Source of the DNA: an uncultured cyanobacterium
Lineage (GTDB): Bacteria > Cyanobacteriota > Vampirovibrionia > Vampirovibrionales > JAGQHJ01
NCBI GenBank assembly: GCA_937922745.1
Contig: CALAJO010000005.1
Coordinates: forward strand, 1,991 to 65,990
Direction: 5' to 3'
Length of the DNA stretch: 64,000 nucleotides
Below, in pieces: positions 2,350 to 38,306 of this stretch. A program made the position numbers and the translations under genes. The notes beneath the pieces were generated by a model, which was not told the origin of the DNA, did no database searches, and saw only the letters and a list, made by a program, of their open reading frames with translations. How positions within the stretch are numbered: the first letter of the stretch is position 1; every line of letters begins with the position of its first letter.

Positions 2350-2824
2350 AAATCCGACAATCCAAGCCATAGACCTGGATGATAAGCCGACCGTCATACC
2401 GGGAGGCCGATTTATTTCCACTCGCCGCGATTTGCGGGCCGGGTTCAAGGCGCATAACATTCTTGCCAGCTTTGGCTATGCCTTCGAAGGCTTGTTATAT
2501 GCCACCCGAACCCAGCGAAACTTCAGGATCCATTTGTGCATTACCATTGTGGCCTTTACCTTGGCCTTGCTGTTGCATATTACACTAATTGAAATGGCAG
2601 TGCTGGCCATTGTCATCGGCATTGTGCTGTTTGCCGAACTCGCAAACACCACTATCGAACTGTTTGTGGATATGCTGACCGAAGGCCGCTACGATATCCG
2701 CGCCAAGGCCATCAAGGATATGGCTGCCGGCGCCGTTCTGATCACCGCAATTAGCGCATTAACCTGCGGCGTCTGCATTTTTGTGCCGTATCTCAGCGCG
2801 TTGTTTATTTCCACTGGGAATTAG
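2336..2824 (+). CDS. dgkA: diacylglycerol kinase / undecaprenol kinase (DgkA family)
   Basis: Three-TM small protein with DgkA-like motifs (AFEGLLYA...ELANTTIE...AKDMAAGAV). Third gene of the pgpH-ybeY-dgkA order. Its 3' end overlaps the convergent minus-strand ORF by 66 nt. Confidence 0.8.
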   Translation: MPSTENPTIQAIDLDDKPTVIPGGRFISTRRDLRAGFKAHNILASFGYAFEGLLYATRTQRNFRIHLCITIVAFTLALLLHITLIEMAVLAIVIGIVLFAELANTTIELFVDMLTEGRYDIRAKAIKDMAAGAVLITAISALTCGVCIFVPYLSALFISTGN

Positions 2825-4494: not shown

Positions 4495-6066
4495 TCACTT
4501 TGCAAGGGGATTGTTTTTGGGATGGTACACGGCAAATTGGTACCCTGGCGGCGTACTCTCGATCGGTATCCCGAAGAGTCGGGGCTTATGCTGGACAAAG
4601 AAGTGGCGCTGCAATGGGTGGTTGTCGATCGCGTCGGCCGGCTTAAAATCCAGGTAGTTCTGCTGTTTTACCAAGAGAGCATTCGAGTACTTGTGCCCAC
4701 TCACTTTGGGATAGGTTTGCGGACCTTCATAAATAAACATTTGCTGGTAATTCTCGGAAAGTACCCATAGCGTGCGGGAAATGCCGATGGGGCGATCCGT
4801 GGTCGATTCAACTTCCCGGAAAACCTGCCTGGCTTGCTGAAGCGACATGCCATGCTGAAGAAAACCGGGGAATGCCAACGTGGTCCAGATAAATCCAATC
4901 GTCGTCAAAGAGAGCATCAGCAGGCCGGTTGTCTGCAACAGCGTACGGTATTTTGTTTCACTTTGGGTCAGATGCAAGAGGGTGTAGAGGCAAACCCCAA
5001 AGAGTACTGGCGTAAACAGAAAGAGGTTATAGCTGCTAAACGGAGTACGGACGCAGGACATATACACTAAGGCAAATATGCCGGTTGCAAACAGCCCGAG
5101 GCAAATCGGCAAAGCAATTTGTCCCTGGTAATGACGCCACCAGTAAAATCCTGAAACGGCGGAAAAAATCGCCACTAATCCGTAAAACGTCATTCGGCTT
5201 TTGAGAAAGTAATAATGAACCAGGTCTTTTAAAGGGGGCAGCATACCATACCGCTGGAAGGCATTTTCGCTTTGGTAGGCTGCATGCGCTTTGGTCCCCA
5301 GAAGGGTTTCCATGATGCCGTAAGGGCTGGCAAGCAATAGAACTATCAGAAAACAAACAAGACTTACACTATACACCATACCTAATGACTTCAAAAAGTC
5401 TTTTCCCTTCTGGAACAGGCTGAAATAGCCGCCAATTAAAAATGCAAAGACCACAGCGCCCCAGGCTTGTGTCGCGCCCATGAGCCCCAACAACAGGCCC
5501 AGCAGGATAGGCAAGTAAAGGGATCGGTGACGAAAGAAAAAAGGCAGCAGGCAAGCAATGGCTATAAGCAGCGTGGCCAAGGCTTCTGGCCGACCGTCGT
5601 TTTGGCCGGTAAACCGGCTGCCCATACCGATTAGACACAAACAAACCATCAGGAAGCCAAAACCGGAAAGGGTTCTTCGAGGAGATGCCGCAAGTGCAAT
5701 TCGGTAAAAGAGAAACGCACAAATCGCCAGGGTCAAGCTATTCAAAACCGCAATGCCGACAAACGCGCTTTGCGGCGTCGCATCCTGCATCAAAAGGCTC
5801 AAAACCACCGGGAACAAGGGAACATAGTACACAAACCGATAGCCTGTTTGCAGCCCAATATCCAACGGCAAATCATAGATCTCATTCACCAGGCCCAGGC
5901 CCTGTTTAAACTGGATAGCCGTTGGAATAAAGGCCACGGCATCCGCTCCGGGAAGGGGATAACCGGTATAACCGAACGTAATTAACAATGTTGCCAGGCT
6001 AATAACCAGGACAGCGATGCTTGCCGTAAAAAGCACTTTTGGCTGAATCACGCGTTTAAGCCTCAC
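4495..6066 (-). CDS. polytopic membrane protein, GT-C-like (ArnT/PMT-type) putative glycosyltransferase
   Basis: 523 aa with 10 or more predicted TM helices, an Asp-containing first loop (YDLPLDIG) and a C-terminal soluble domain. Assignment is by architecture only. Confidence 0.5.
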   Translation of the reverse strand: MRLKRVIQPKVLFTASIAVLVISLATLLITFGYTGYPLPGADAVAFIPTAIQFKQGLGLVNEIYDLPLDIGLQTGYRFVYYVPLFPVVLSLLMQDATPQSAFVGIAVLNSLTLAICAFLFYRIALAASPRRTLSGFGFLMVCLCLIGMGSRFTGQNDGRPEALATLLIAIACLLPFFFRHRSLYLPILLGLLLGLMGATQAWGAVVFAFLIGGYFSLFQKGKDFLKSLGMVYSVSLVCFLIVLLLASPYGIMETLLGTKAHAAYQSENAFQRYGMLPPLKDLVHYYFLKSRMTFYGLVAIFSAVSGFYWWRHYQGQIALPICLGLFATGIFALVYMSCVRTPFSSYNLFLFTPVLFGVCLYTLLHLTQSETKYRTLLQTTGLLMLSLTTIGFIWTTLAFPGFLQHGMSLQQARQVFREVESTTDRPIGISRTLWVLSENYQQMFIYEGPQTYPKVSGHKYSNALLVKQQNYLDFKPADAIDNHPLQRHFFVQHKPRLFGIPIESTPPGYQFAVYHPKNNPLAK

Positions 6067-6146: not shown

Positions 6147-7265
6147 TTACCGCAGATGCTCCCAATGGAGGACACTGTCTTCCGCCATGGGGAGGGTGAG
6201 GGTTTTCCCGATAACCGCTTCCAGTTGGGCCGGTGAAATGCCTGTTCCAGGACGCTTGATGGCCAGGTCATTCAGGGAGAGCTGATGTCCGGCCGGCAAA
6301 TCTTTGCGGATAATCAGGCTTTTGCGCGCCTTTGCAATACAATCGCCCTCGATTGGCTGGGGTTGTTTTACCCCATCACCTAGGGCGGACTCAACCTCGC
6401 GAATGGCCTGCATCATGGCCTTCAATTCCGCAGCAGTCAGGGACATTTTATGATCTGGGCCGGGCAGATCCTTGTCTAGCGTGTAATGCTTTTCGATGAT
6501 CCGTGCGCCGAGCGCAACGGCGGCAACTGTGACATTCCAACCCAGCGTATGATCGGAGTAACCGATCAAACAGTTCGGGAAAGCCTGGTCAAGGGTCTGC
6601 AATGCCCTGAGATTAACAGAGTCCGGCGTGGTTGGGTAAGAGCTGACGCAATGGAGCAGAGACAAGGGCAAGTCCGGGTTTTCCTGGCGCAAAGCCGCCT
6701 CGGCCGCTTGCACTTCGGCCAGGGTGGACATGCCGGTGGACAGAATAATCGGCGTGTTCATTCGTCCCAGCATCCGTAGAAAGGGTAAATTAGTCACTTC
6801 GCCGGAAGGGATCTTCAGCATCGGCAATTGCAAATCATGATGCAGGTACTGCGCAGCGACTTCATCAAACGGGGTGCAGAGAAACATGATACCCCTCTGC
6901 GCCGCATAGGCTTGAAGCTCCTTATACGCTTCCTCAGGCAATGTCAGGGAGGCAAGCAGGTCATGCTGGGTCTTGGTCTTCTGGTCCGACAGGGTTTCCG
7001 CCTGGTATGCCGCTAGAGGTGTTTGTTTGGACGCCAGCGTATCAGGGTTGAAAAGTTGGAATTTAACCGCATCGGCTTTGGCTTCAATTGCGGCATCCAC
7101 CAATTCCTTGGCCATGGAAAGATTCCCGTTATGGTTAACCCCGGCCTCCGCAATCACAAAGGTTTTGTCCGTCCCTAAAATTTCGTCCCACTGCAATGCG
7201 GTCTGGCTCATTGTTTTTTCTGCGGGCTGTGAAAGGGTGGCTGGTTGCATTCGCGTCTTCTCCAA
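6147..7265 (-). CDS. NeuB-family nonulosonic acid synthase (legionaminic/pseudaminic/N-acetylneuraminic acid synthase-like)
   Basis: N-terminal AEAGVNHNGNL...DAVKFQ NeuB TIM-barrel signature and a C-terminal SAF-like antifreeze domain. Confidence 0.85.
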   Translation of the reverse strand: MEKTRMQPATLSQPAEKTMSQTALQWDEILGTDKTFVIAEAGVNHNGNLSMAKELVDAAIEAKADAVKFQLFNPDTLASKQTPLAAYQAETLSDQKTKTQHDLLASLTLPEEAYKELQAYAAQRGIMFLCTPFDEVAAQYLHHDLQLPMLKIPSGEVTNLPFLRMLGRMNTPIILSTGMSTLAEVQAAEAALRQENPDLPLSLLHCVSSYPTTPDSVNLRALQTLDQAFPNCLIGYSDHTLGWNVTVAAVALGARIIEKHYTLDKDLPGPDHKMSLTAAELKAMMQAIREVESALGDGVKQPQPIEGDCIAKARKSLIIRKDLPAGHQLSLNDLAIKRPGTGISPAQLEAVIGKTLTLPMAEDSVLHWEHLR

Positions 7266-7331
7266 ACGTGATACGGTGATAATTATTCTTGATCGTAGGC
7301 CAAGCCAGGCAGGAAGTCCAGGCCACCCTGG

Positions 7332-8075
7332 TTAGCGTAACACCGGCATGGCTTTATCCACACAATCGTCAGACTCTTGCTGGAGCAGAAACTCGGCCAG
7401 TCGCAAGTCAAACAGGGTATCGATATCCACCGCGGCTTCCGGCGGCATTACATATGCATAGACTGGCCCCGCTAAAAAGCCATGGGCATAGGCCTGTTCT
7501 GCTTCAGTGCAGTAGATGGCGCCATTCAGGCAGAAGTTGTGGGCCAGTTGCTGACGATTGGTCTTTTGCTGATCAAAGCCGTGTAAAGCCAGCTCGCCGG
7601 TTTTGGAAACCGTGCCTTGCCAGGAGAGCGGCTTGCCGGGAGAAACACTCACCACGCTAACCGAACCCTTCGCTGCTTGTTGATGATAAAGCTGAAGCGC
7701 CTCATCAATATGCCGAGCAGTCCGTAGTGGCGATGTGGGTTGCAGTAACACCAAGGTGTCTGGATAGGCGGCGTTCGCATCAAGGTACCAATCCAGGAAG
7801 TGGCGGATGACCTGCTGGGTCGTGGCCGTGTCATTCGCAAGCTCCGCCGGGCGCGCTGCAGAGAGCAGTGCGCCATGCGCTTGGGCAACCTCTGCGATTG
7901 CCGCGTCATCCGTCGAAACATACACTGCATCAATCGTTTTGGCCTGCTGCGCCGCTTCGATGGTGTAGGCGATCAGCGGCTTACCACAGAGCGGATGGAT
8001 ATTCTTTCCAGGCAGGCCCTTTGATCCGCCCCGCGCAGGAATCAGCGCAACGGTTTTCACGCTTGGCCTATCCAT
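7332..8075 (-). CDS. CMP-nonulosonic acid synthetase (acylneuraminate cytidylyltransferase family, NeuA/LegF-like)
   Basis: CTP_transf_3 N-terminal motif ALIPARGGSKGLPGKN. Overlaps the upstream aminotransferase gene by 19 nt, indicating an operon. Confidence 0.8.
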   Translation of the reverse strand: MDRPSVKTVALIPARGGSKGLPGKNIHPLCGKPLIAYTIEAAQQAKTIDAVYVSTDDAAIAEVAQAHGALLSAARPAELANDTATTQQVIRHFLDWYLDANAAYPDTLVLLQPTSPLRTARHIDEALQLYHQQAAKGSVSVVSVSPGKPLSWQGTVSKTGELALHGFDQQKTNRQQLAHNFCLNGAIYCTEAEQAYAHGFLAGPVYAYVMPPEAAVDIDTLFDLRLAEFLLQQESDDCVDKAMPVLR

Positions 8076-9253
8076 TGATCCAACACATCCATAACGGATT
8101 GAATGACGCGCGTTTGCTGATCAGGCATCAGTGTAGAGGAGCTGGGGAGGTTAAAGCCATATCGTTGCCAGTGTTCCGCGTTAGGGCAAGGATGCTGGGC
8201 AAAAGGCTGGAATGGTTTCTGCAAATGCCCCGGCTTGAAGAACGGTCGGGACTGGATCTGTTGATCGTTCAACGCCTTCACCATATCCATGGCAGTGTAA
8301 CCGGGCACAGCCTCAGGATTCAGCGCAACACCGTAAAGCCAGTCGGAGCTAATCGCATCCGCGGGCGGCGCAAACCGTAAGAGGGCCGGATGACCGACAA
8401 AAGCCTCGCTATAGCGACGGGCGATATCCTGCCGGTTTTGGACGAAACGGGAAACCTGCTCCAGTTGCGCAACGCCCATGGCGGCCTGGACATTGGTGAG
8501 GCGGTAATTATAGCCTACTTCATCGTGGGAAAAGGTAAGGGCGTCATCCTTGGCCTGGTTGATAAGGTAGTGCGCCCGCTCCATCAAGGCCGTATTCTGG
8601 CTGATGATGAGGCCGCCACCACCGGTTGTCATTGTCTTGTTCCCGTTGAAGCTCAGGCAGCCAATCGTCCCGATTCGGCCGCACGGCTGGCCCTGCCAGT
8701 AGGCTCCCATTGCTTCCGCAGCGTCCTCAATCACCTTCAGGTTATGGCGCGCTGCAACATCAAGGACAGGTTCCATATTCATTGGGTGCCCATAAAGATG
8801 GACGGTGATAATCGCTTTGGTCTTCGGGGTAATCAAGGCTTCCAGCTTCGCCGGGTCAGCATTCCAGTGCGTTGCCTGGGAATCCCAAAATACGGGAGTC
8901 GCCTGGACATAACGGATCACATTAATGGATGAAATAAACGTCAAGCTGGGCACAATCACTTCGTCCCCCGGCTGGACGCCAGCCAGCAAAAGCGCAATAT
9001 GAAGCGCCGCAGTGCCGTTGACGGTTGCGACCGTCCGTTCAACGTTGAAATAATAAGCCATTTCCTGTTCAAAACGGGTTACGTAAGGGCCCACCGACGA
9101 AACCCAGCCGGAATCCAAGGCATCTTTCACATAATTCCAGGTATTGCCTTCCAGACAAGGCTCGGAAAGCGGGATAAAAGGCTGCATCGCCACGGCGTTA
9201 GACATGGTACAGGGCGACCTTTTCGTTGTTTTCCTGGGCCTTAAAGAAATCAA
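8057..9253 (-). CDS. DegT/DnrJ/EryC1/StrS-family PLP-dependent sugar aminotransferase (LegC/PseC-like)
   Basis: Fold-type I aminotransferase with PLP-lysine motif SFNGNKTMTTGGGG and the DegT-like N-terminal region. Confidence 0.85.
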   Translation of the reverse strand: MISLRPRKTTKRSPCTMSNAVAMQPFIPLSEPCLEGNTWNYVKDALDSGWVSSVGPYVTRFEQEMAYYFNVERTVATVNGTAALHIALLLAGVQPGDEVIVPSLTFISSINVIRYVQATPVFWDSQATHWNADPAKLEALITPKTKAIITVHLYGHPMNMEPVLDVAARHNLKVIEDAAEAMGAYWQGQPCGRIGTIGCLSFNGNKTMTTGGGGLIISQNTALMERAHYLINQAKDDALTFSHDEVGYNYRLTNVQAAMGVAQLEQVSRFVQNRQDIARRYSEAFVGHPALLRFAPPADAISSDWLYGVALNPEAVPGYTAMDMVKALNDQQIQSRPFFKPGHLQKPFQPFAQHPCPNAEHWQRYGFNLPSSSTLMPDQQTRVIQSVMDVLDQWIGQA

Positions 9254-10199
9254 CCGTCATTCGCAAGCCTTCTTTCAGGGAGTATTGCGGCGCGTAGTCG
9301 AGGATGGCCTTAGCCTTGTCGATATTCGACCAGAGGCGGAACACTTCACTCTTGTCCGGGCGGAAGCGCTCTTCCTGTTGAACGATATTCAGTTCCCGGC
9401 CCAAAAGATCTTCCACTTCCTTGATCAGGTCGGCAATGCTGATTTCATATCCCGCACCCACGTTGATCACTTGGCCTTCGGCAGCCTTGGTAGCGCCCGC
9501 TTTCAGGAAGCCCTGCACTGTATCCAGGACAAAGTTAAAATCACGCGTCGGCGTCAGGTTGCCTACCCGAACTACCTCGCCAGCCAGGCCCTGGCGGATG
9601 AGGTTGGGAATGATGGCCCGCATAGACTGGCGCGGCCCGTAGGTGTTAAACGGCCTCAGCAGCACCACCGGCAGATCGAACGAGCGGTAGTAGCTCTCCG
9701 CAATCTGATCGGCCCCGATTTTACTTGCGGAGTAGGGAGATTGCCCTTGCAAAGGATGCTGCTCATCAATCGGCACGTATTGGGCAGTGCCGTAAACCTC
9801 GCTGGTAGAAGTCGTCACAACACGCTCAATGTCAAAATCGCGACAGGCGTCCATCACGTTCAGCGTCCCGGTCACATTAGTATCCACATAAGAGCGCGGC
9901 GCAACATAGGAGTAGGGAATCGAAATGAGGGCCGCAAGATGGAACCCGTGGGTGCAACCTTTTACAAAATGGCGCACAAAACCACTATCCCGAACGTCGC
10001 CGGGCATTACCTCAATGGCTTCAAGCACTTCCGGGCTTAGCGTATCCAGCCAACCCCACTGGTTGGAGGAGTTGTAGCGCACCATTGCCTTGACGGACGC
10101 CCCTTCGCGCACCATCATCTCCGTAAGGTGGCTGCCGATAAAACCGCCGGCACCGGTGATAAAGACTTTCTTACCTTCCCAATATCTATTTGTATTCAT
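9198..10199 (-). CDS. NAD-dependent nucleotide-sugar 4,6-dehydratase/epimerase (extended SDR, LegB/RmlB-like)
   Basis: GxxGxxG Rossmann motif ITGAGGFIGSHL and catalytic YxxxK (YSASK). Overlaps the downstream gene by 56 nt. Confidence 0.75.
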   Translation of the reverse strand: MNTNRYWEGKKVFITGAGGFIGSHLTEMMVREGASVKAMVRYNSSNQWGWLDTLSPEVLEAIEVMPGDVRDSGFVRHFVKGCTHGFHLAALISIPYSYVAPRSYVDTNVTGTLNVMDACRDFDIERVVTTSTSEVYGTAQYVPIDEQHPLQGQSPYSASKIGADQIAESYYRSFDLPVVLLRPFNTYGPRQSMRAIIPNLIRQGLAGEVVRVGNLTPTRDFNFVLDTVQGFLKAGATKAAEGQVINVGAGYEISIADLIKEVEDLLGRELNIVQQEERFRPDKSEVFRLWSNIDKAKAILDYAPQYSLKEGLRMTVDFFKAQENNEKVALYHV

Positions 10200-10209
10200 C
10201 GTGATGTGC

Positions 10210-11274
10210 TTAAACTCCTACTGAAATATACTGTTCCGAGTCCTGGTTAACGCGAGCGTAATCCTCGGGCTGGCCAATGTCAATCCACGCCTCGGAAATG
10301 GGGAACGTTCCCACTTGCTGGCCTGATGAAAGCAGCACTTCAATCAGATCCGTCATATCAAAATAACGATTATCGGGGATATATTGCAAGGCCATCGGGT
10401 CGATCAAATAGATCCCCGCATTGATATTAAAGTGCTGAACCGGTTTCTCCTCCAGTTGAACCAGCCTCTGCCCCTCGGTGTTGAGGACGCCGTAAGGCAC
10501 CTGGTACTGAAAATGCCGTGAGCCCAAGGTCAACACATTGTTGTTTGCATGATGCCATTCCAGCATATCGTGGAAATTAATCCGGGTGAGGATATCGCCG
10601 TTCATCACGAAAATAGGGCGATCCAGGGCCTGGTTATGGAGGAACTTGAGGGAGCCGCCGGTTCCCATCGGGTTTTCTTCCCGGATGACATTGATATTGA
10701 GGGATTTCGGTGCATCCGCAGTCAGGAAATTCTCAATCATCTCGGACTTGTAATGGGTCATCACCCAGATGTCCTCAAACCCCTGTGCTTCGATATGGTT
10801 AAGGATATGCCCCAATATCGGGCGTTCGTTAATGGGAAGCAGCGGTTTCGGCGTTGTCAGCGTCAGCGGCCAAAGGCGCTTGCCTGCCCCGCCAGCCATA
10901 ATAACAATAGGGCACTTATGGTTGTCCCGCGGCACGTAATCCCGAAGCAGCACCAGGTTGGTTACCCGGTTGTTCTCATCCACAACGGGCAAGGCTTCGT
11001 TTTTATGCTTGGTCATCACGTCACGCAACTCCGTGGCGGTCATCGTGTCCCGGCCAACAACGGGTTTACTGTTCATCAAGCCGGATACACCGGTTAAGAG
11101 CGATACCCCCTTCAGCAAGGCCGTCCGCACATCCCAATCCGTAATGATGCCCAGCAGCGTTTCATCCTTGTCCACGACAAGCGAAATCTTAAACCCGGTC
11201 TTATTCAGGTTTTCCAGGACATCGGCCAGGGAATGGGTGGTTTCCAGATAGGCTTTGCGGTAATCATTGCGCAT
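10210..11274 (-). CDS. CBS-domain sugar-phosphate nucleotidyltransferase (PtmE-like, e.g. GlcN-1-P guanylyltransferase)
   Basis: N-terminal CBS pair (IITDWDVRTALLKG) fused to an NTP-transferase domain (IVIMAGGAGKRLWPLT...KPLLP). This architecture matches the PtmE enzyme of GDP-dependent legionaminic acid pathways. Confidence 0.75.
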   Translation of the reverse strand: MRNDYRKAYLETTHSLADVLENLNKTGFKISLVVDKDETLLGIITDWDVRTALLKGVSLLTGVSGLMNSKPVVGRDTMTATELRDVMTKHKNEALPVVDENNRVTNLVLLRDYVPRDNHKCPIVIMAGGAGKRLWPLTLTTPKPLLPINERPILGHILNHIEAQGFEDIWVMTHYKSEMIENFLTADAPKSLNINVIREENPMGTGGSLKFLHNQALDRPIFVMNGDILTRINFHDMLEWHHANNNVLTLGSRHFQYQVPYGVLNTEGQRLVQLEEKPVQHFNINAGIYLIDPMALQYIPDNRYFDMTDLIEVLLSSGQQVGTFPISEAWIDIGQPEDYARVNQDSEQYISVGV

Positions 11275-11381
11275 GAATGGGGTAATGCCTCCTCTTTAAT
11301 CCATCGCATTATGTTCCAGAATGACAGAAGCAGTAGAGAGATCATAATACAAGGACTTGGTGCGTAAGACGAATTTTGCTT

Positions 11382-11411
11382 TTCAATGATTTTTTCTTTA
11401 CATTGTATAAT
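11382..11411 (+). promoter_or_regulatory. candidate sigma70 promoter (TTCAAT-18-TATAAT) for the plus-strand nonulosonate operon
   Basis: Perfect -10 TATAAT at 11406-11411 in the AT-rich divergent intergenic region, about 90 nt upstream of the ATG at 11501. Confidence 0.4.
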
Positions 11412-11500
11412 CATCTGGCCGGTTTTCCCAAAGTCGCCAGGATTCTTTGTTCAAGGCCTTTTTACCTTATCGTAAAAGCGTTAAACCAGGAAAGAAACGC

Positions 11501-12727
11501 ATGTCCCCTTCGCTGAAACTTATGGTCGTCACCACCTCCCGTGCGGACTACGGACTATTATCGCCGTTGCTTCAGCGGCTTGGGAAAGATCCCCATTTCG
11601 AGGTGCTACTGGTGGCAACCGGCACCCATTTATCTCCTCTGCACGGCTATACGCTCAAACAGATCCAGGAGGAGTGGGATGGGGAGCTTACAACCGTGGA
11701 TATGACGATGAGTAACGATTCCGAGCAGGCGCTTTGCAATGCGGTTTCCGTCGGGGTGCAAGGATTCTCGCGCGTGTTAATGGATGAGAAGCCCGACGCG
11801 GTTATCCTGCTTGGCGATCGCTATGAATTGTTCTCTATTGCGCCTGCCGCAGTCATCCACAAAATCCCCATCATCCATATCCACGGTGGTGAGGCCACGT
11901 TCGGAGCCATAGATGAAGCCATCCGCCACGCCGTAACCAAAATGGCCGCCATTCATTTCCCAACCATTCCCGCCTATGCCCGGCGGATTATCCAGATGGG
12001 CGAAAACCCGGCCCATGTTTTTGCGGTTGGCGCACTCGGCGTGGATAATATCCACCAGATTGAAACCTACTCCGTTGAGGCATTCAGCAAACTGACCGGC
12101 GTTCAATTCGTAACTGAAAAAGTTGCCTTGATGACGTATCACCCGGTGACGCTGGAAGGGTACAAAGAGGCCGCGCAACAGGCGAAAAACCTAATGGATG
12201 CGTTGCTGGATACCGATTTAACCGTGCTGGTGACCATGCCCAACGCCGATACGGGCGGTGTACAGGTTTATGAAACCATACAGGGCTATCTCAACCACTA
12301 TCCGCAAAAGTTCAGGCTGATGAAAAGCCTGGGGCAGAAAGGTTACCTGAGCGCCATGCGCTACGCCCGCCTGATGGTTGGCAATTCTTCGAGCGGCATT
12401 TTGGAAAGCGCATCGTTTCAGCTTCCGGTGGTGAACATCGGCGACCGGCAGGCGGGGCGCTTTGCGCCGGAGAACGTCATCCATTGCGGATACGATACGG
12501 CATCCATCAAGGCAGCCATTCAAGACGCTTGCTCCGATGCGTTTCGGGCCGCCATTGCAGGGCTTGTTAACCCCTATGGGGATGGCAAGGCAGCGGAGCG
12601 CATTGCTGAAACGCTTAAGACCATTGACTTTCGGGATAAGACCCTGCTGCTTAAGAAAGGGTTTTTCGATATGCCTGCCGAAGTCATTGACGGTGCGGTT
12701 GAGCCGTTGCATCTGGCCCATGCTTAA
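11501..12727 (+). CDS. hydrolysing nucleotide-sugar 2-epimerase (NeuC/LegG/PseG family)
   Basis: Epimerase_2 motifs TSRADYGLL...HIHGGE. Start placed at ATG 11501 with RBS GGAAAG; the track's TTG at 11447 is less likely. Confidence 0.8.
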   Translation: MSPSLKLMVVTTSRADYGLLSPLLQRLGKDPHFEVLLVATGTHLSPLHGYTLKQIQEEWDGELTTVDMTMSNDSEQALCNAVSVGVQGFSRVLMDEKPDAVILLGDRYELFSIAPAAVIHKIPIIHIHGGEATFGAIDEAIRHAVTKMAAIHFPTIPAYARRIIQMGENPAHVFAVGALGVDNIHQIETYSVEAFSKLTGVQFVTEKVALMTYHPVTLEGYKEAAQQAKNLMDALLDTDLTVLVTMPNADTGGVQVYETIQGYLNHYPQKFRLMKSLGQKGYLSAMRYARLMVGNSSSGILESASFQLPVVNIGDRQAGRFAPENVIHCGYDTASIKAAIQDACSDAFRAAIAGLVNPYGDGKAAERIAETLKTIDFRDKTLLLKKGFFDMPAEVIDGAVEPLHLAHA

Positions 12728-12784
12728 CTCCGACGAGGATTATATGGTGCTGGATTTGTCTCAACGGATTAAGGGAACGGGATA

Positions 12785-13567
12785 ATGCGCATACTCTACA
12801 TGGGGAAAAACAAGCCTGCTGTTATTGCCGGGTTGGAATACCTGGTTGAGCAGGGGCATGATGTGGTGGCCGTTGCGGCGCAGAAGAACAAAATGCCTGG
12901 CTCGCATTGCCTGGTGGAGACGGCCCATCGCTTTGGCATTCCTGTAACGAGCGATATTGCGTTATATCAAAACATCGCGGCGGGACAGTGCCCGCCGGAG
13001 TGCGGCTATCACCTTCAGGACATCGATCTGGTGATCTCCTACCTGTTTTGGAAGAAGATCAGAAAGCCGCTGATTGAGCTGCCGAAACTGGGATGCATCA
13101 ACTTCCACCCTGCACCGCTGCCGGATTACAAGGGGCTTGGCGGATACAACTTCGCGATTTACGAAGGCGCACAACAGTGGGGTGTTTCCGCCCACTTTGT
13201 GAACGAGGATTTTGACGCGGGCGATCTCATCAAAGTGATGCGCTTTGATATCAACCCCAACCGCGAAACGGCCTACTCCTTGGAGCAGAAGAGCCAGAGC
13301 GTCATGTTTGAGCTTTTTCAATATGTGATGGATCTGATAGCTTCCGGCCAACCCTTGCCGAGAATCCCCCAGCTGCAAGGCGGAAAATATATTACCCGCG
13401 CCGATTTTGAAGCCCTGCGCAAGGTGTCCGAGACCGACACGGTTGAGGAAATCAAGCGAAAAGTTCGCGCCTTCTGGTATCCGCCGTATGAAGGGGCGTA
13501 TGTTGATATTAATGGGGAGAGTTTTACGCTCGTATCCAGGGAATTGCTGCAAGATCTGCGCCCGTGA
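12785..13567 (+). CDS. formyltransferase-family protein (sugar N-formyltransferase-like, Fmt N-terminal domain only)
   Basis: About 260 aa with formyl_trans_N core HPAPLPDYKGLGG...SAHFVNEDFDAGDLI (His/Asp catalytic motif) and no tRNA-binding C-terminal domain. Size and motifs resemble sugar N-formyltransferases. Confidence 0.7.
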   Translation: MRILYMGKNKPAVIAGLEYLVEQGHDVVAVAAQKNKMPGSHCLVETAHRFGIPVTSDIALYQNIAAGQCPPECGYHLQDIDLVISYLFWKKIRKPLIELPKLGCINFHPAPLPDYKGLGGYNFAIYEGAQQWGVSAHFVNEDFDAGDLIKVMRFDINPNRETAYSLEQKSQSVMFELFQYVMDLIASGQPLPRIPQLQGGKYITRADFEALRKVSETDTVEEIKRKVRAFWYPPYEGAYVDINGESFTLVSRELLQDLRP

Positions 13568-13645
13568 CCCTGAGGTGCGCTTCTTGTCGGCAGGATGGGA
13601 CTATGCTAACCTCGGTGTAAAGCCTTCCCAAGGAGAGAGACAGAG

Positions 13646-14644
13646 ATGACGAATGCACTGCTGGTCGCACTGGGCGTAATGGGAAAGCGCTATCAAAAAG
13701 CGCTGGAGACAGTCTTTGGCGAAGACTTGAACCTGTACACGGTGGATCCCAAATTCCCAACCAACCATGGAAGCCGACATTATGCCGATATTGCGGAAGT
13801 ACCGGACAACATCGCGTTTGACATCGCCGTGGATGCGCGCCCAAATTTGGGCCGGATGGGCGTTTTCAAGCATTTCCTGGTTCGCAACATCCCCCGCATT
13901 GTGATTGAAAAGCCCTCAGCTTCCTCAATGGAGGAGTCGCGCGCCATGCTGGCCTTATACCAGCAGGCTGTCAACAAGCCCACCATCCTGGTTCCGTTTT
14001 ACCGTCGCTTTACCAGCGCGTTCGCCCCGCAAACCCTCTCAAAACTGGATGCCGGCCAGCTGAAATCTGTTGTCATTTCCGCCGGCGCGGTCGGGTTGGG
14101 CTGTGTAGGCATCCATTACGTCGATCTGGCCAATTACTTGTTTGGTGCGACGCCAACCGATGTTTACGCCCAGCTGGAGTTGGGGACGATTCCCAGCCCG
14201 CGCGGGGAGCAGTTTAAGGATGACGCCGGGACGCTGATCGTCAACTATCCCAATGGGCGCTTTGTGCTGAATCTGCTTTCAGACTCCACGGCCGGGGCGA
14301 ACATTACATTGCTCTACGAGCGCGGGAAGATTCAGTTCCTGGATCAGCGGGGCTACCAATGGCTCTGGTTTCGACAGCCCAGGGAAAACTGGCAGGAGCC
14401 GTACTACAAAACCCACCAGGAAGTGATGATCGATCCGCCGGAACCTTATGGGTTTAACCTGGAAGAGATGATGGCAAAAGGGATTCGCGCGCTCTGCGAT
14501 GATAAGGTTTCTATCCCAACGCTGGAAGACGGGCATCATGCGCTTCAGGTGCTGGCGCTGGCCATGAAGTCCTCGCAGGAAGGCAGGACTATTGCCTGGA
14601 CGGATCAATCCGCCATAGAAGCCGTTTCGTTCCACTTTACCTAG
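13646..14644 (+). CDS. Gfo/Idh/MocA-family oxidoreductase
   Basis: Rossmann N-terminus and an EKP motif (IVIEKPSAS), followed by a C-terminal alpha/beta dimerisation domain. Confidence 0.6.
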   Translation: MTNALLVALGVMGKRYQKALETVFGEDLNLYTVDPKFPTNHGSRHYADIAEVPDNIAFDIAVDARPNLGRMGVFKHFLVRNIPRIVIEKPSASSMEESRAMLALYQQAVNKPTILVPFYRRFTSAFAPQTLSKLDAGQLKSVVISAGAVGLGCVGIHYVDLANYLFGATPTDVYAQLELGTIPSPRGEQFKDDAGTLIVNYPNGRFVLNLLSDSTAGANITLLYERGKIQFLDQRGYQWLWFRQPRENWQEPYYKTHQEVMIDPPEPYGFNLEEMMAKGIRALCDDKVSIPTLEDGHHALQVLALAMKSSQEGRTIAWTDQSAIEAVSFHFT

Positions 14645-14655
14645 GAGGTTAGCCC

Positions 14656-15588
14656 TTGCGGATTGCATTTATCGGGGCCGGAAATATTGCGCCGTTTCAC
14701 CTACAAGCCATCCGCCTGCTGGGGGCGGAGGTCGTCGGGGTCTGCACGCGAAGCGATCGGGGCCGGGTTTTTGCCGAGGAAAACCGGATTCCGCATTTCT
14801 CCCCGGATGCCAGGACGCTGGTTAAGGAAAGTCAGGCACAGGCCGTAATGCTGCTGGCGCAGCCATCCGCGTACCCGCAGATCCTGTCGGACTTGAAGCC
14901 GCTGAACCTCCCGACGTTCCTTGAAAAGCCGTTGAGCTATACCGTTCAGCAGGCCGAGGCGTTGCGTCCCCTGCTGCCCGATGTCGTTTTTGTGGGCCTA
15001 AACCGTCGTTTTTACGGCAACATCCAGCAGATTATGCCACTGCTGCAAGCCTCGCCCTCATTCTCTGCCGAGCTGGTAATGCCGGAGCGCCTGAAGGATT
15101 TTGAACACCGGGATGAATTGACCCGCCACTTCTGGCCCATGATGAACAGCATCCACGGGATTGATTTGATGACGTTTCTGGCAGGCGCACCAACCGAGCT
15201 GCTTCATCTGCATCGGTGGAACTACCTGGAACCAATCGACGAAATGCAGTACCGGACGGCTGTTTACCAGACCGAACACAACCATACCGTCACATTTCTG
15301 AGCAATTTGGACTCCCCCGGCGGATGGCGCATGCATTTCTTCCTGGCGAAGCAGGAAGTGATAGTGTCCCCGCTTGAGAAAACAATTATCAGATCCTTAT
15401 CCGGCGTGGAGGAAGTGCCTGTAACCAAGGCTGATCGGCTGGCAAAGCCCGGTTTTCTGCACCAGATGCAAACCTTTCTGGAAGGGGCGGCCAATCCGAA
15501 GCATTTTCCGGCAGAATGGGTTTCGTTCGATGCGGCGTTACAGTCCATGCGCGCGGTAGAACTGCTTTTCCCAAAATCGGCTTCATGA
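14656..15588 (+). CDS. Gfo/Idh/MocA-family oxidoreductase
   Basis: IAFIGAGNIA Rossmann motif and LEKPL. TTG start preceded by AGGAGG. Confidence 0.7.
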   Translation: MRIAFIGAGNIAPFHLQAIRLLGAEVVGVCTRSDRGRVFAEENRIPHFSPDARTLVKESQAQAVMLLAQPSAYPQILSDLKPLNLPTFLEKPLSYTVQQAEALRPLLPDVVFVGLNRRFYGNIQQIMPLLQASPSFSAELVMPERLKDFEHRDELTRHFWPMMNSIHGIDLMTFLAGAPTELLHLHRWNYLEPIDEMQYRTAVYQTEHNHTVTFLSNLDSPGGWRMHFFLAKQEVIVSPLEKTIIRSLSGVEEVPVTKADRLAKPGFLHQMQTFLEGAANPKHFPAEWVSFDAALQSMRAVELLFPKSAS

Positions 15589-15717
15589 TTTATTTTTCAT
15601 TAAACAGTCCCATATGTTGAAGCCGTTTTCAAAAGATGGCTTTATAATGTTTGGGAGAGATTTGGAAGTTTTTTCCAGCTTGCTTCATTTGGGCTGAAAC
15701 TGAGACGCTAGGAAGAG

Positions 15718-17973
15718 ATGAATATCTACGGAACCAATGGACGGGACACCATTAGAGCCGGCAACGGCCACGATGTGATTTTTGGCTACGCCGGAGACGA
15801 CACGATTTACGGCCAAGGCGGCAACGACTGGATTCACGTGACGTTTTTGCCGGGCAACGATTACATCCATGGCGGCGCAGGCTTTGATACGGTCGAGATT
15901 TCAAACCGCTATTGGACACAGTACCGGAACCGCTTCGAGATTTACAACACGGAATTTAACCTGCATACCGGAAGGGCCACATTTGACACGTTTACCATTC
16001 GTACCTTCAGCATCGAGCAGGTTGTTGGCACGGGCAACCCTGATTTGCAGGACGTCATTTCAGCCGCGGGGGCAACCCGCAGCGTCACGATTAACCTGCT
16101 GAACGGCCGCATTGTTGGCGCGGCATCCGGCCTAAAGATGGTTAGCCGTTTTGAGGCGGCAACTGGCGGGCTTGGCCGGGATACCCTGATAGGCGATCAT
16201 CTGCAAAATGAGCTGAACGGCGGGGCCAATGCCGACACCATGAACGGCCAGGGCGGCTACGATCTATTCTGGGTGGATAATCTCGGCGATCGGGTCGTAG
16301 ATACTGCAAGCCGTACGATTGATACGGTGATTGCCAGCGTTGATTACACATTGCCAATCTACCTGGAAAACCTGATTCTCCTGGAGTTCTTCCCTGTTAC
16401 GACCGCCACGGGAAATGCCCACCATAACTTCCTGCTGGGCAATGCTTCCGCAACCCTGATGAGTGGGTTGGCTGGGCATGATGTCATCTGGGGACAGGAC
16501 GGCAATGATACATTGCTCGGCGGTCTCGGAAACGATTTCCTTTCCGGCGGGGCAGGCGATGATACCTTTGTCTATATCGCATCGGGCGGCCATGAATTCA
16601 TCCTGGATAGCCAGGGCCAGGATATCCTTGACATGAGCGTCTTTCTGCTGGCTGACATTGCGAGTTGGGTTGCGTTGGATGGCCCCGATGCGGATACGTG
16701 GATCGACCAACTGGCGGTTTATATCAATACCGGCAGCACGATAACCATGGCGCAGTTCTTTGACAACAGCACAGCCGATATCAACCTGCTCTCTGCCGGA
16801 ACGGGGCAGGTTGAATCGATACGGCTGGGCGATGTGACGCTGCAATTCACGGATATATTGCCTTTGATCACCGCCGATCCTGGTTTGCAAAGCACGCTTC
16901 TCGCCTTGCAAACTAACGTGGACTGGATGAATCAAGGATTTAACCACTTGGGCATCATTCCCACAACCTTTCTCGACCAAGGTGATAATTTCCTCATCGG
17001 GACGCCGCAGGAAGATATTATTGATGGCCTGGCCGGTAATGATACTATTCGCAGTGGCGTTGGCGCGGACACGATTTATGGGAACGAGGGCAACGATGTC
17101 CTGCTGGGCGGCAACCACTACGACCAGATTTATGGCGGGCCGGGGAACGATACCATTAAAGGAGGCCCGGGCACCGACTTGCTACTGGGTGGATCCGGCG
17201 ACGACACGTATTCCATTATTTCCACCACCGATATGGTTGTGGAGGACGCCAATAACGGGAATGATACGGTGGTAAGTACGGTATCGTACAGGCTGACTCC
17301 CAATGTCGAAGCCCTGATCCTGAGCCAGTCGGCCGGATCAATTCACGGAACGGGGAATGAACTCCACAACGCCATTCGCGGCAACGCCGGGGCGAATCGT
17401 CTTTATGGCTTGGGCGGCAACGATACCATGTGGGGCGGGGGCAGTAATGATACGCTGTATGGCGGAACCGGGCACGATCTGCTTAATGGCGATTCGCGGA
17501 ATGATATGCTTTTTGGCGATGACGGCAACGATACCCTTTGGGGCGGAACCGGCAACGACACCTTGACCGGCGGCCAAGGTGACGACGTTTTATACGGCGA
17601 GTCGGACAGGGATGTCTTAATATCCGATTGGGGGAATGACACTTTGATGGGGGGCATTTCGGATGACACCTATCGTATTCTGTCCGCCACCAGCGAGCAG
17701 CGCGTAATCCAAGATACGGCAGGTTTGCTGGATGTGTTGGATCTGCGGACAATAGCAGCCAGCGGCAACGTCACCTTCCAGGCGGTGGATGGCAGCGATG
17801 CAGACACAGACTTGGATGCGTTACGAATCGTATTTGGCTCCGGCGCGGAACTTCGCATAAACCAGTATTTCGCCAACGCTCCGACACTCTCGCCGGGGAA
17901 TGGGCTGATTGAAAGAATTATGCTGGCGGATACGACCTTTGATTATAATATGGTCGTAAACGCCCTGATTTAA
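15718..17973 (+). CDS. RTX-type calcium-binding repeat protein (hemolysin-type Ca-binding repeats), likely a secreted or surface protein
   Basis: Many GGxGxDxL/I/F nonapeptide repeats (GNGHDVIFGYAGDDTIYGQGGND, GGLGNDFLSGGAGDDTF and others). No N-terminal signal peptide, consistent with a T1SS-type substrate. Confidence 0.8.
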   Translation: MNIYGTNGRDTIRAGNGHDVIFGYAGDDTIYGQGGNDWIHVTFLPGNDYIHGGAGFDTVEISNRYWTQYRNRFEIYNTEFNLHTGRATFDTFTIRTFSIEQVVGTGNPDLQDVISAAGATRSVTINLLNGRIVGAASGLKMVSRFEAATGGLGRDTLIGDHLQNELNGGANADTMNGQGGYDLFWVDNLGDRVVDTASRTIDTVIASVDYTLPIYLENLILLEFFPVTTATGNAHHNFLLGNASATLMSGLAGHDVIWGQDGNDTLLGGLGNDFLSGGAGDDTFVYIASGGHEFILDSQGQDILDMSVFLLADIASWVALDGPDADTWIDQLAVYINTGSTITMAQFFDNSTADINLLSAGTGQVESIRLGDVTLQFTDILPLITADPGLQSTLLALQTNVDWMNQGFNHLGIIPTTFLDQGDNFLIGTPQEDIIDGLAGNDTIRSGVGADTIYGNEGNDVLLGGNHYDQIYGGPGNDTIKGGPGTDLLLGGSGDDTYSIISTTDMVVEDANNGNDTVVSTVSYRLTPNVEALILSQSAGSIHGTGNELHNAIRGNAGANRLYGLGGNDTMWGGGSNDTLYGGTGHDLLNGDSRNDMLFGDDGNDTLWGGTGNDTLTGGQGDDVLYGESDRDVLISDWGNDTLMGGISDDTYRILSATSEQRVIQDTAGLLDVLDLRTIAASGNVTFQAVDGSDADTDLDALRIVFGSGAELRINQYFANAPTLSPGNGLIERIMLADTTFDYNMVVNALI

Positions 17974-33885: not shown

Positions 33886-33949
33886 TCCCTTTATATAGGG
33901 GATTTTGAATTTTTCCGCTTGGATACAATGAGGGGATGGAGTGATTTGC

Positions 33950-35112: not shown

Positions 35113-35241
35113 AGAAGCCTCCACACACTAAAAATTCAAATTAACCCAACACTGTTATAAAACCGCGCAACTGCAAACTTGTTGACAGCCTTTATAAATT
35201 CATCAGATTTGGGTGGAGGATTTCCATCCTTCAGGCTTTGG

Positions 35242-35511: not shown

Positions 35512-35684
35512 CTCTATACTCCTCCTTTAGCCGTTATCCTTATTGTGCCGACAGATCCCCCCAGGGCGCATCCTGAGTATGGTGTATCCTCGCCTCAAAT
35601 CCGCCGTTAAGGCCGGTTTACCTCAAATTGATAATGGCTGAAGGCTGTGGTATGGTTTTGCTACCGATAGGTTCAGGTTCCTCC

Positions 35685-38305: not shown

Positions 38306-38306
38306 G

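Follow-up and report, generated by a model that had tools for sequence, protein, structure and literature searches.

A GDP-type legionaminic acid gene cluster in which a WbkC-like sugar N-formyltransferase may take the place of LegH

The window analysed here, 64 kb out of one 67-kb contig, carries a gene cluster that, judged from its enzyme profiles, is a GDP-type pathway for legionaminic acid (Leg), a sialic-acid-like bacterial surface sugar, and not a Pse pathway. Our leading interpretation, held at about even confidence, is that a WbkC-like sugar N-formyltransferase replaces the LegH step of this pathway. The most likely product would then be CMP-Leg5Ac7Fo or one of its epimers. The minus strand encodes a PtmE-like protein, LegB, LegC, a CMP synthetase and NeuB/LegI (6147-11274), and the plus strand encodes NeuC/LegG, a 260-aa formyltransferase and two Gfo/Idh/MocA oxidoreductases (11447-15588). 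An ORF check and profile scans with Pfam and NCBIfam found all nine ORFs where a previous sequence-only reading of this DNA had placed them, and each falls in the family that had been named for it (Table 1). The minus-strand genes had also been described as overlapping. This is true of LegB/LegC and LegC/CMP synthetase, but a gap of 10 nt separates PtmE from LegB, and one of 81 nt the CMP synthetase from NeuB.

Table 1. Features of the Leg cluster and its surroundings, in window coordinates
Feature	Position	Strand	Evidence
Membrane protein, about 9-10 transmembrane segments, directly 3' of NeuB	4495..6066	-	Hydropathy scan
NeuB-family synthase, LegI-like	ORF 6147..7265, likely 6147..7250	-	NeuB + SAF; TIGR03569 398.2 (cut-off 399.65) vs PseI 258
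Spacer CMP synthetase-NeuB, 81 bp	7251..7331	.	Sequence read; occupies LegH slot of sister clusters
CMP-nonulosonate synthetase, LegF-like	7332..8075	-	Pfam CTP_transf_3, 91 bits
LegC-family PLP aminotransferase, predicted to make the 4-amino sugar	8057..9253	-	TIGR04181 386.7 bits (cut-off 420); DegT 355 bits
LegB, NAD-dependent 4,6-dehydratase	9198..10199	-	TIGR04180 465.8 bits (cut-off 475); PseB 50.5
PtmE/LegX-like GlcN(Ac)-1-P guanylyltransferase, marker of GDP-type Leg pathway	10210..11274	-	Pfam, two CBS + NTP_transferase
Divergent intergenic region PtmE/NeuC	11275..11446	.	Promoter-like hexamers on both strands, consensus matches only
NeuC/LegG, hydrolysing NDP-sugar 2-epimerase	11447..12727	+	TIGR03568 419.8 bits (cut-off 235.9)
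Sugar N-formyltransferase (predicted), 260 aa, WbkC-like	12785..13567	+	Formyl_trans_N 73.7 bits
Gfo1, Gfo/Idh/MocA-fold sugar oxidoreductase, pair member 1	13646..14644	+	Pfam GFO_IDH_MocA_C
Gfo2, Gfo/Idh/MocA oxidoreductase, pair member 2	14656..15588	+	Pfam GFO_IDH_MocA N-terminal domain; GxGxxA + EKP intact
Terminator-like hairpin	15618..15644	+	Pattern scan: 12-bp stem, then T-rich tail; consensus match only
Candidate nonulosonic acid transferase, 613 aa	18010..19851	+	Weak BFO_1060-family glycosyltransferase + TIGR04396 matches
Candidate KpsS/KpsC-like (Capsule_synth-related) transferase, 753 aa	19911..22172	+	Homology to L169, L170

The assignment to Leg, which the sequence-only reading had left between Leg and Pse, follows from the profile scores, since the LegB, LegC, NeuC and NeuB models score best and the PseB and PseI models far lower. 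NCBIfam profiles detected no Pse-type enzymes in the window. CBS-domain PtmE-like proteins are a published marker of the Leg pathway (bioRxiv 10.1101/2022.03.25.485807), and the PtmE-like protein is 53-56% identical to its counterparts in the sister Leg clusters L169 (Vampirovibrio), L172 and L173. The CMP synthetase shows the same 53-56% identity to its homologues in these clusters. LegB is 76% identical to that of L172, and LegC is 71% identical to those of L169 and L173 and 67% to that of L172. The closest NeuB homologues (57-63% identity) carry the JGI name N,N'-diacetyllegionaminate synthase, and identity to the NeuB of L172 and L173 is 62% and 60%. Translation of NeuB probably starts at the ATG at 7250, which has GGAG upstream. 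The membrane protein that follows NeuB has no match in Pfam or NCBIfam; it could be a polymerase or a membrane-bound glycosyltransferase. The region between PtmE and NeuC is presumed from its hexamers to hold promoters in both directions; the divergent layout is also found in L169 and L173.

In outline, the CMP-legionaminic acid pathway of Campylobacter jejuni consists of PtmE, LegB, LegC, LegH, LegG, LegI and LegF (Schoenhofen et al. 2009, via PMC4481668, PMC5378307). The window has the PtmE-like CBS guanylyltransferase, LegB, LegC, the hydrolysing 2-epimerase, the NeuB-family synthase and the CMP synthetase in common with it. Unlike C. jejuni, it lacks a LegH/PglD-type acetyltransferase throughout its 64 kb and an SDR-type PtmA, and has a formyltransferase. 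In the pathway we propose, the PtmE-like enzyme would provide GDP-linked GlcN(Ac), with housekeeping GlmU acetylating N2. LegB would dehydrate this to a 4-keto-6-deoxy sugar, and LegC would place an amino group at C4. The 260-aa formyltransferase would then act in LegH's stead, formylating the amine just introduced at C4 with N10-formyl-tetrahydrofolate as donor. NeuC/LegG would remove GDP and epimerise C2, NeuB/LegI would condense the hexose with PEP, and the CMP synthetase would yield CMP-5-acetamido-7-formamido-Leg (Leg5Ac7Fo). The Gfo pair might carry out a redox step on the sugar, such as oxidation followed by re-reduction to an epimer, a role like that suggested for ElaA/ElaC in the formation of 8-epi-Leg.

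The absence of a hexapeptide N-acetyltransferase from the window, first noted in the sequence-only reading, stands on three tests. Pfam gave zero Hexapep or GNAT matches in the 58 largest ORFs (all >=145 aa), and tblastn of the window with three LegH/PglD proteins gave nothing at E<=0.01. An HMM built from eight LegH/PglD sequences found nothing at E<=1 in the six-frame translation of the window, while it detected all LegH proteins known from the comparison loci. The nearest sister clusters (L172, L173 and Vampirovibrio L169) all encode LegH. In L172, in L173 and on the P0136 contig, a LegH-type hexapeptide acetyltransferase lies directly upstream of NeuB; in L169 LegH comes after the CMP synthetase at the end of the locus, which does not reach a NeuB. 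In the window this slot is taken by the 81-bp spacer, in which tblastn and the LegH/PglD HMM found no LegH remnant. Relative to the sister clusters, LegH has been lost from this locus.

The 260-aa protein is predicted from its sequence and modelled fold to be a sugar N-formyltransferase. It belongs to a widespread family of ~260-aa proteins, mostly from uncultured lineages, across which N106, H108 and D144 are invariant. Its AlphaFold model (pLDDT 92.7) matches WbkC structures best in Foldseek, over the full length (TM 0.79/0.81-0.84), and further matches are the 4-N-formyltransferases Rv3404c, WbtJ and VioF. A profile search of the PDB returned an Fmt at 9e-25 and WbkC at 2e-23. A tRNA Fmt was considered and rejected, since the Fmt C-terminal domain is absent (Pfam scan), the score with the fmt model, 77.9 bits, is far short of the 201.5 required, and the fold is WbkC-like; the earlier suspicion of a sugar-modifying enzyme is borne out by the same evidence and the invariant triad. 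WbkC is the GDP-perosamine 4-N-formyltransferase of Brucella melitensis (PDB 5VYR, 5VYS, 5VYT, 5VYU). Both proteins have about 260 aa, a two-subdomain fold and an Asn-His-Asp motif, and the WbkC substrate, a GDP-linked 4-amino-4,6-dideoxyhexose, is of the same class as the one proposed here. Identity is, however, about 21-23%, WbkC serves a perosamine O-antigen as opposed to a nonulosonic acid (NulO), and the window protein falls in a separate, uncharacterised family.

Relatives of the formyltransferase adjoin genes for NeuC or DegT proteins in NulO clusters from Omnitrophota, Acidobacteria, Woesearchaeota, Parcubacteria, Micrarchaeota and metagenomes, and NeuC-formyltransferase adjacency recurs in five lineages. 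A LegH-type sequence is present in just 1 of 14 NulO-linked loci of the family. In L089/L090 the gene order is LegB-LegC-NeuC-Fmt-NeuB, with the formyltransferase exactly in the LegH slot and no LegH within 13 kb. NeuC of the window is 43-45% identical to that of formyltransferase-bearing clusters vs 37-38% for LegH-only clusters. These contexts bear on the possibility, which we consider rather improbable, that a canonical LegH elsewhere in the genome makes Leg5Ac7Ac the main product, the formyltransferase serving a minor variant or another glycan. The C. jejuni legH does sit apart from the leg cluster, the absence of LegH established here covers one contig of the genome, and many family members have no link to NulO genes. 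Against it, LegH is gone from the exact slot it holds in sister clusters, the formyltransferase appears to share an operon with NeuC, the recurrent adjacency described above, and in at least one complete Leg operon, that of L089/L090, a formyltransferase is present and LegH is absent.

The site of formylation is a separate question. The enzyme could instead act on the 2-amino group of GDP-GlcN, the PtmE product, placing the formyl group at N5; the 4-amino group would then be formylated too, receive its acyl group from an unlinked enzyme, or stay free. We think this unlikely, yet the fusion of some relatives to LegH and the 5-N-formyl-Leg made by Halorubrum keep N5 as an alternative to N7. The C. 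jejuni PtmE makes GDP-GlcN with a free amine (PMC5378307). The same-family formyltransferase of L003 is fused to a PglD/LegH domain, and those of L036 and L088 are adjacent to one, which implies two different amine targets. With the LegH::Fmt fusion of L172, whose formyltransferase domain is more distant, these cases suggest that both acyltransferases can act jointly, not as alternatives. Halorubrum sp. PV6 provides the only solved structure from a Leg cluster with a predicted formyltransferase (HrrPV6_1050) and a NeuD-like acetyltransferase gene beside it, and it points to N5 (PMC6137143). Ca. Kuenenia stuttgartiensis has a Leg cluster with a predicted formyltransferase and formylated CMP-NulOs, in which one amine is formylated and one is free (bioRxiv 10.64898/2026.04.20.719630).

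As in the window, the formyltransferase genes of these two organisms lie among legB, legC, legG, legI and legF homologues, and a formylated sugar was chemically detected in both. Unlike the window, Halorubrum retains acetyltransferases, an assigned LegH as well as the NeuD-like one, and Kuenenia pairs its predicted formyltransferase with a deacetylase. Both enzymes are compared here by description, and the Halorubrum case would bear on N5 here if its enzyme belongs to the family. Other evidence argues for the 4-amino group. In the stretches examined, no PtmE was seen beside family members that adjoin DegT aminotransferases (L004, L013, L014, L019, L084), so that N2 would be acetylated already and only the DegT-made amine free. 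L089/L090 also encode acetamidino genes (HisF and HisH homologues, beside a 396-aa ORF with no Pfam match); these need one N-acetyl group, which formylation at N5 would not leave. Among sugar-modifying enzymes, the closest neighbours in structure use 4-amino sugars, and the 71% identity of LegC to its counterpart in a LegH-type cluster speaks for a shared N2-acetylated substrate. PseJ, to which the synthesis of Pse5Ac7Fo is attributed (PDB 6CI2, 6CI4; PMC11040635), is likewise a formyltransferase of a NulO cluster that formylates the amine that becomes N7, and this precedent counts for an equivalent role here. It differs in being shorter and core-only (192-217 aa in the PDB entries), in matching the family profile over residues 70-209 alone (E about 7e-11), and in serving a UDP-linked Pse pathway. 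Formylation of the 4-amino group to a 5-acetamido-7-formamido sugar, as first proposed, is the best-supported reading, given the absence of LegH from the window, the WbkC-like fold and the relatives beside NeuC and DegT. To call the product an undescribed nonulosonic acid variant was an overstatement, as Pse5Ac7Fo, the Halorubrum 5-N-formyl-Leg and the Kuenenia CMP-NulOs had been reported. With N-formyl NulOs and cluster formyltransferase genes known before, the proposed pathway is a plausible but incremental step beyond the bacterial sugar chemistry already described.

NeuC, the formyltransferase, Gfo1 and Gfo2 appear from their arrangement to form one operon, closed by the terminator-like hairpin. 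In contrast to canonical Leg clusters, the window has two distinct Gfo/Idh/MocA proteins, whose similarity to the protein that fills the PtmF slot there is no more than remote. Gfo1 has an invariant EKP motif, H157, D160 and D34, and its model (pLDDT 90.4) has a generic Gfo/Idh/MocA fold. The top PDB sequence match of Gfo2 is 3EZY, which is also the closest earlier structure to ElaA, a Gfo/Idh/MocA oxidoreductase (323 aa) of the ElaA/ElaB/ElaC module for 8-epi-legionaminic acid in Acinetobacter baumannii KL49. ElaA, compared here by description, is encoded in a Leg cluster and is proposed to oxidise a CMP-Leg hydroxyl (PMC13656337). In the Ela module an SDR reductase accompanies a single Gfo/Idh/MocA enzyme, whereas the window has two different Gfo/Idh/MocA enzymes and no SDR.

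Orthologues of Gfo1 and Gfo2 lie side by side in L085, L012, L086, L169, L170 and L171, and the window pair is 50-52% identical to that of L169. The two oxidoreductases had been read as present instead of an acetyltransferase. This does not hold, because the pair coexists with LegH in Leg clusters of a Sphingomonadaceae plasmid and of Vampirovibrio chlorellavorus. Comparison of these loci suggests that it is probably a separate, recurrent accessory module for a redox step on the sugar. It is very improbable that the formyltransferase and the pair form a separate formamido-sugar pathway (dehydrogenase, aminotransferase and formyltransferase of the WbpB/WbpE type) that merely neighbours the Leg genes. 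The L084 operon, in which a family member accompanies an SDR, a cupin, a Gfo/Idh/MocA enzyme and a DegT aminotransferase, is consistent with such a pathway. The single apparent operon from NeuC to the hairpin speaks against it, and no second aminotransferase turned up when the 58 largest ORFs of the window were scanned with Pfam. The two components also occur independently in Leg clusters, the pair without a formyltransferase in L085 and L169 and the formyltransferase without the pair in L003 and L089/L090.

Two candidate transferases are encoded further along the plus strand. A 29%-identical homologue of the 613-aa protein follows NeuB in L172 (E 2e-44). The 753-aa protein is 29% identical to a region beside the Gfo pair in L169, where the annotation gives a protein of 720 aa that matches Capsule_synth weakly, and it has a further homologue in L170.

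All of the genes named in the sequence-only reading are present in the region, and their families are borne out by Pfam and NCBIfam, including each family of the GDP-type legionaminic acid (Leg) route (PtmE, LegB, LegC, LegG/NeuC, LegI and LegF). That reading had called the cluster legionaminic/pseudaminic-like. Judged from profile scores, the cluster is of the Leg type: LegB and LegC are the models that fit the dehydratase and the aminotransferase, and the cluster includes a hydrolysing 2-epimerase of the NeuC type, which has no place in the pseudaminic acid (Pse) route. The LegB and LegC scores are slightly below the curated cut-offs, yet these are clearly the top models. The pseudaminic half of the label did not stand: the PseB and PseI models score below their cut-offs, the NeuC-type epimerase takes the place of PseG, and the cluster lacks the PseB, PseC, PseG and PseI set, with PseJ resembling its formyltransferase in the core only. 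Published work treats a CBS-domain guanylyltransferase of the PtmE/LegX type as a marker for the Leg route (bioRxiv 10.1101/2022.03.25.485807; PMC5378307). The window protein of this type is 53-56% identical to the PtmE-like proteins of sister Leg clusters. The nearest homologues of the NeuB-family synthase (57-63% identity) carry the JGI label N,N'-diacetyllegionaminate synthase. The most likely start codon is the ATG at 7250; it is preceded by GGAG and is consistent with database entry P0133 (367 aa).

Features of the legionaminic acid cluster in the window, with the profile matches that define them
Feature	Coordinates	Strand	Evidence
NeuB-family synthase (LegI)	6147-7265	-	TIGR03569 398.2 (cut-off 399.65); PseI 258 (cut-off 340)
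CMP synthetase (LegF), cytidylyltransferase	7332-8075	-	CTP_transf_3 91 bits
LegC-family aminotransferase	8057-9253	-	TIGR04181 386.7 (cut-off 420); PseC 242.6
LegB 4,6-dehydratase	9198-10199	-	TIGR04180 465.8 bits (cut-off 475); PseB 50.5 (cut-off 407.75)
PtmE/LegX-type guanylyltransferase	10210-11274	-	two CBS domains and NTP_transferase (Pfam)
Hydrolysing 2-epimerase NeuC/LegG	11447-12727	+	TIGR03568 419.8 (cut-off 235.9)
Formyl_trans_N protein, 260 aa	12785-13567	+	PF00551 73.7 bits
Gfo1, Gfo/Idh/MocA oxidoreductase	13646-14644	+	Pfam
Gfo2, Gfo/Idh/MocA oxidoreductase	14656-15588	+	Pfam
Terminator-like hairpin	15618-15644	+	follows Gfo2

The absence from the window of a LegH/PseH-type N-acetyltransferase, reported earlier, withstood searches of several kinds. 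No hexapeptide or GNAT acetyltransferase was matched by Pfam in the 58 largest ORFs, that is, every ORF of at least 145 aa. The window gave no match to three LegH/PglD proteins by tblastn (E<=0.01), and its six-frame translation contained nothing that matched an eight-sequence LegH/PglD HMM (E<=1). The same HMM recovered every LegH of the comparison loci at E<1e-80. Sister clusters of the minus-strand operon, taken from NeuB and Gfo1 searches, indicate where the gene would be expected. L172 shares 55% identity with the window in PtmE, 76% in LegB, 67% in LegC, 55% in the CMP synthetase and 62% in NeuB. The corresponding values for L173 are 56% (PtmE), 71% (LegC) and 60% (NeuB), and those for Vampirovibrio chlorellavorus L169 are 53% (PtmE), 71% (LegC), 53% (CMP synthetase), 50% (Gfo1) and 52% (Gfo2). 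In each sister cluster a LegH-type domain adjoins the CMP synthetase. L169, a locus that stops before any NeuB, has it as a free-standing gene, and so does the contig of database entry P0136, where it lies upstream of NeuB. L172 carries it in fusion with a formyltransferase domain that is more distant (Hexapep::Fmt, L172:3712-5211), and in L173 its fusion partner is the CMP synthetase itself. The latter fusion (L173:2625-3971, 448 aa) was seen in both halves by BLAST and the LegH HMM and is not among the precomputed Pfam matches.

In the window, the LegH slot is an 81-bp spacer. The simplest history suggested by these comparisons is that LegH was lost and that a formyltransferase is present beside NeuC. 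In line with this, the window NeuC is only 37% identical to that of Vampirovibrio, whereas LegC is 71% identical, and it shares 43-45% identity with the NeuC proteins of formyltransferase-bearing clusters. Alternatively, LegH could be encoded away from the cluster and the main product could be ordinary. The unlinked legH of C. jejuni lends this arrangement some weight, but it is unlikely here.

The 260-aa formyltransferase is not a methionyl-tRNA formyltransferase. Its score against the fmt equivalog model TIGR00460 is 77.9 bits (cut-off 201.5), it lacks the C-terminal domain Formyl_trans_C, and it is shorter than the approximately 310 aa of that enzyme. It belongs to a family of proteins of about 260 aa with 998 matches, the best 120 of which are 45-59% identical to the window protein. 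Members occur in Omnitrophota, Acidobacteria, Thermoleophilia, Chloroflexota, CPR bacteria and DPANN archaea; databases frequently mislabel them as methionyl-tRNA formyltransferase. The catalytic Asn-His-Asp triad (N106, H108 and D144) is invariant across 25 members. In a PDB search, the family profile matched an Fmt at 9e-25 and WbkC, the GDP-perosamine N-formyltransferase of Brucella, at 2e-23. The AlphaFold model (pLDDT 92.7) has WbkC as its top fold match over the whole chain (TM 0.79/0.81-0.84). Other fold matches included tRNA Fmt, ArnA and the 4-N-formyltransferases Rv3404c, WbtJ and VioF; with tRNA Fmt, no more than about 62-65% of the target is aligned. The protein thus combines the features of sugar N-formyltransferases of the WbkC/VioF/WbtJ/Rv3404c type: a Formyl_trans_N core with the triad and, in the model, a short C-terminal subdomain and the corresponding fold. 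WbkC acts on a GDP-linked 4-amino-4,6-dideoxyhexose, the chemical class to which the LegC product also belongs. PseJ is only distantly related, matching the core alone of the family profile at an E-value of about 7e-11.

About 165 loci of the family were examined through genome and metagenome scans and a few look-ups. A NeuB gene lies nearby in 14 of them, and the genome scan returned mostly Thermoleophilaceae loci with other contexts. Database matches in Vibrio campbellii (L087) and Fusobacterium vincentii (L168) turned out not to be Leg clusters. In the window, as in L003, L004, L013, L014, L019, L036, L084 and L089/L090, the formyltransferase is accompanied by genes for NDP-sugar dehydratases and aminotransferases. 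It directly follows NeuC in the window, L003, L089/L090 and L013, and abuts NeuC in L019. Outside nonulosonic acid (NulO) clusters, the family is found beside DegT aminotransferases (L004, L036 and L084) or PglC-like Bac_transf genes (L082 and L083). The positions next to NeuC and DegT genes fit a family of sugar N-formyltransferases that would act on amines made by aminotransferases. In Omnitrophota L001/L002, a member stands alone among housekeeping genes; therefore, the family is not NulO-specific. That the window enzyme serves a separate formamido-sugar pathway is highly improbable.

With the formyltransferase in LegH's stead, the formyl group would be placed on N7, a reading that we give about an even chance. 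A parallel is L089/L090, where the order is LegB-LegC-NeuC-Fmt-NeuB, with the formyltransferase exactly in the usual place of LegH and no LegH-type sequence within 13 kb. This cluster also carries acetamidino genes, homologues of HisF and HisH, and an adjacent 396-aa ORF without a Pfam match is taken to be a putative amidotransferase. The acetamidino genes need an N-acetyl group, which fits a sugar with N5-acetyl and N7-formyl groups. Two more enzymes of L090 suggest further unusual tailoring of the L089/L090 NulO: a B12-binding radical SAM enzyme whose gene is flanked by NeuB and the CMP synthetase (L090:4402-5790), and a sulfotransferase encoded after PtmE (L090:11172-12149).

Alternatively, the amine destined to be N5 could receive the formyl group, for instance on GDP-GlcN, the product of PtmE (PMC5378307). 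Several relatives argue against a plain exchange of LegH for the formyltransferase. The formyltransferase is fused to PglD_N and Hexapep domains in the Omnitrophota Leg cluster L003 (L003:10001-11482), and to a FemAB/GNAT-like domain (Acetyltransf_6) in Acidobacteria (L009:8837-10789 and L012:8891-10789). In L036 and L088, a PglD-like gene follows the formyltransferase gene. To our knowledge, no bifunctional N-acyltransferases of NulO pathways have been described. Halorubrum sp. PV6 has a predicted formyltransferase beside a NeuD-like gene in its leg cluster, and its product is 5-N-formyl-Leg (PMC6137143). Fusion, adjacency and the Halorubrum case indicate that in some systems formyl- and acetyltransferase act together, so N5 formylation is conceivable. 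For the window cluster, it is rather unlikely.

Two Gfo/Idh/MocA oxidoreductases, Gfo1 and Gfo2, follow the formyltransferase and represent two distinct paralogous families. Adjacent pairs of the same two types recur on a Sphingomonadaceae plasmid (L085), in an Acidobacteriaceae genome (L012), in Vampirovibrio (L169) and on metagenome contigs L170 and L171; on a Mesorhizobium plasmid (L086) the pair lies near a NeuB gene. The pair had been read as present instead of an N-acetyltransferase, together with the formyltransferase. This does not hold for the oxidoreductases, because the Leg clusters of L085 and L169 have both the pair and a normal acetyltransferase. A reading of either protein as PtmF was rejected. 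The Rhizobium plasmid L174 shows the canonical order PtmE, Gfo/Idh/MocA, CMP synthetase and SDR, and the protein that occupies its PtmF slot bears only a remote similarity to Gfo1 and Gfo2 (E 1e-3 to 1e-5, N-terminal region only; E 0.003 for Gfo2). In addition, L085 carries a PtmF-slot gene and an SDR besides the Gfo1-Gfo2 pair. Schoenhofen and colleagues in 2009 reportedly assigned PtmA and PtmF roles in GlcN-6-P supply.

Both oxidoreductases keep the EKP motif, and Gfo1 also has the invariant His and Asp. The Gfo1 model has the standard Gfo/Idh/MocA sugar-dehydrogenase fold; its fold search returned generic sugar and inositol dehydrogenases and no specific match. The nearest described analogue of the pair is ElaA/ElaC of A. 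baumannii KL49. According to the proposal for that module, 8-epi-Leg arises when a Gfo/Idh/MocA enzyme oxidises CMP-Leg at C8 and an SDR then carries out the reduction (PMC13656337). The ElaA/ElaC and PtmF/PtmA modules consist of one Gfo/Idh/MocA protein and an SDR flanking the CMP synthetase. In contrast, the window has two Gfo/Idh/MocA proteins, and LegB is the only SDR among its ORFs scanned with Pfam. By analogy with ElaA/ElaC, redox epimerisation by the pair is a reasonable guess, but no more.

The most specific reading joins these elements. The 260-aa protein would represent an uncharacterised, multi-phylum family of NDP-sugar 4-N-formyltransferases that has repeatedly replaced LegH or fused with it in Leg pathways. 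Here it would operate with a Gfo1-Gfo2 redox module to produce a chemically undescribed NulO, either 7-N-formyl Leg or a C4 or C8 epimer. As a whole, this is possible but doubtful. Flagella, capsules, S-layers and LPS all carry NulOs, whose N-acyl groups determine charge, antigenicity and recognition by phages or lectins. We know of no report of 7-N-formyl legionaminic acid, and a literature search yielded none. The earlier proposal of an undescribed NulO variant is overstated; N-formyl NulOs as such are already established. Pse5Ac7Fo is known, with its synthesis credited to the formyltransferase PseJ (PMC11040635), as is the Halorubrum sugar. Kuenenia has formylated CMP-NulOs and a leg-type cluster with a deacetylase and a formyltransferase (bioRxiv 10.64898/2026.04.20.719630).

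The first observation is thus confirmed, and its interpretation is partly supported. What is new is the enzyme family, WbkC-like and distant from PseJ; the loss of LegH from its slot, for which the comparative evidence is clear; and the recognition of Gfo1-Gfo2 as a recurrent accessory module. If the reading is true, LegH loss together with a WbkC-like formyltransferase beside NeuC would be a genetic signature for predicting N-formyl Leg. A large unannotated formyltransferase family would gain a function, and the Gfo/Idh/MocA pair would be flagged as an unstudied conserved accessory module of Leg pathways. The general picture would not change and the concept would not surprise a specialist, given the N-formyl NulOs and cluster-encoded formyltransferases already known. 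The prediction can be tested, and it would supply an annotation for a large family.

Other genes of the window were also noted. A 613-aa protein (18010-19851) is a candidate legionaminyltransferase: it weakly matches TIGR04396 and the glycosyltransferase family of BFO_1060, which is the Leg-transferase candidate of Tannerella, and a 29%-identical homologue lies directly after NeuB in L172. The next product (19911-22172, 753 aa) has no family match. It is 29% identical to a region beside the Gfo pair in Vampirovibrio L169, where the annotation gives a 720-aa protein that weakly matches Capsule_synth, and to one in L170, and is possibly a KpsS/KpsC-like ulosonic acid transferase. Between the Leg operon and these two candidates lies a 751-aa protein with RTX calcium-binding nonapeptide repeats (15718-17973); that it is a secreted or surface acceptor of the sugar is pure speculation. 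Downstream of NeuB on the same strand are a 523-aa membrane protein with about 9-10 transmembrane segments (4495-6066) and a soluble 434-aa protein (2759-4063), neither with a Pfam or NCBIfam match. A second glycan-related block (31318-39284) encodes a TPR and GT41-like protein (855 aa), a TylF-type O-methyltransferase, a GT2 with weak AglJ- and ArnC-like matches, a 550-aa unknown protein and an LPG_synthase_TM protein. Amid an otherwise housekeeping and signalling region, a stand-alone gene (43919-44419) encodes an HNH endonuclease of 166 aa.
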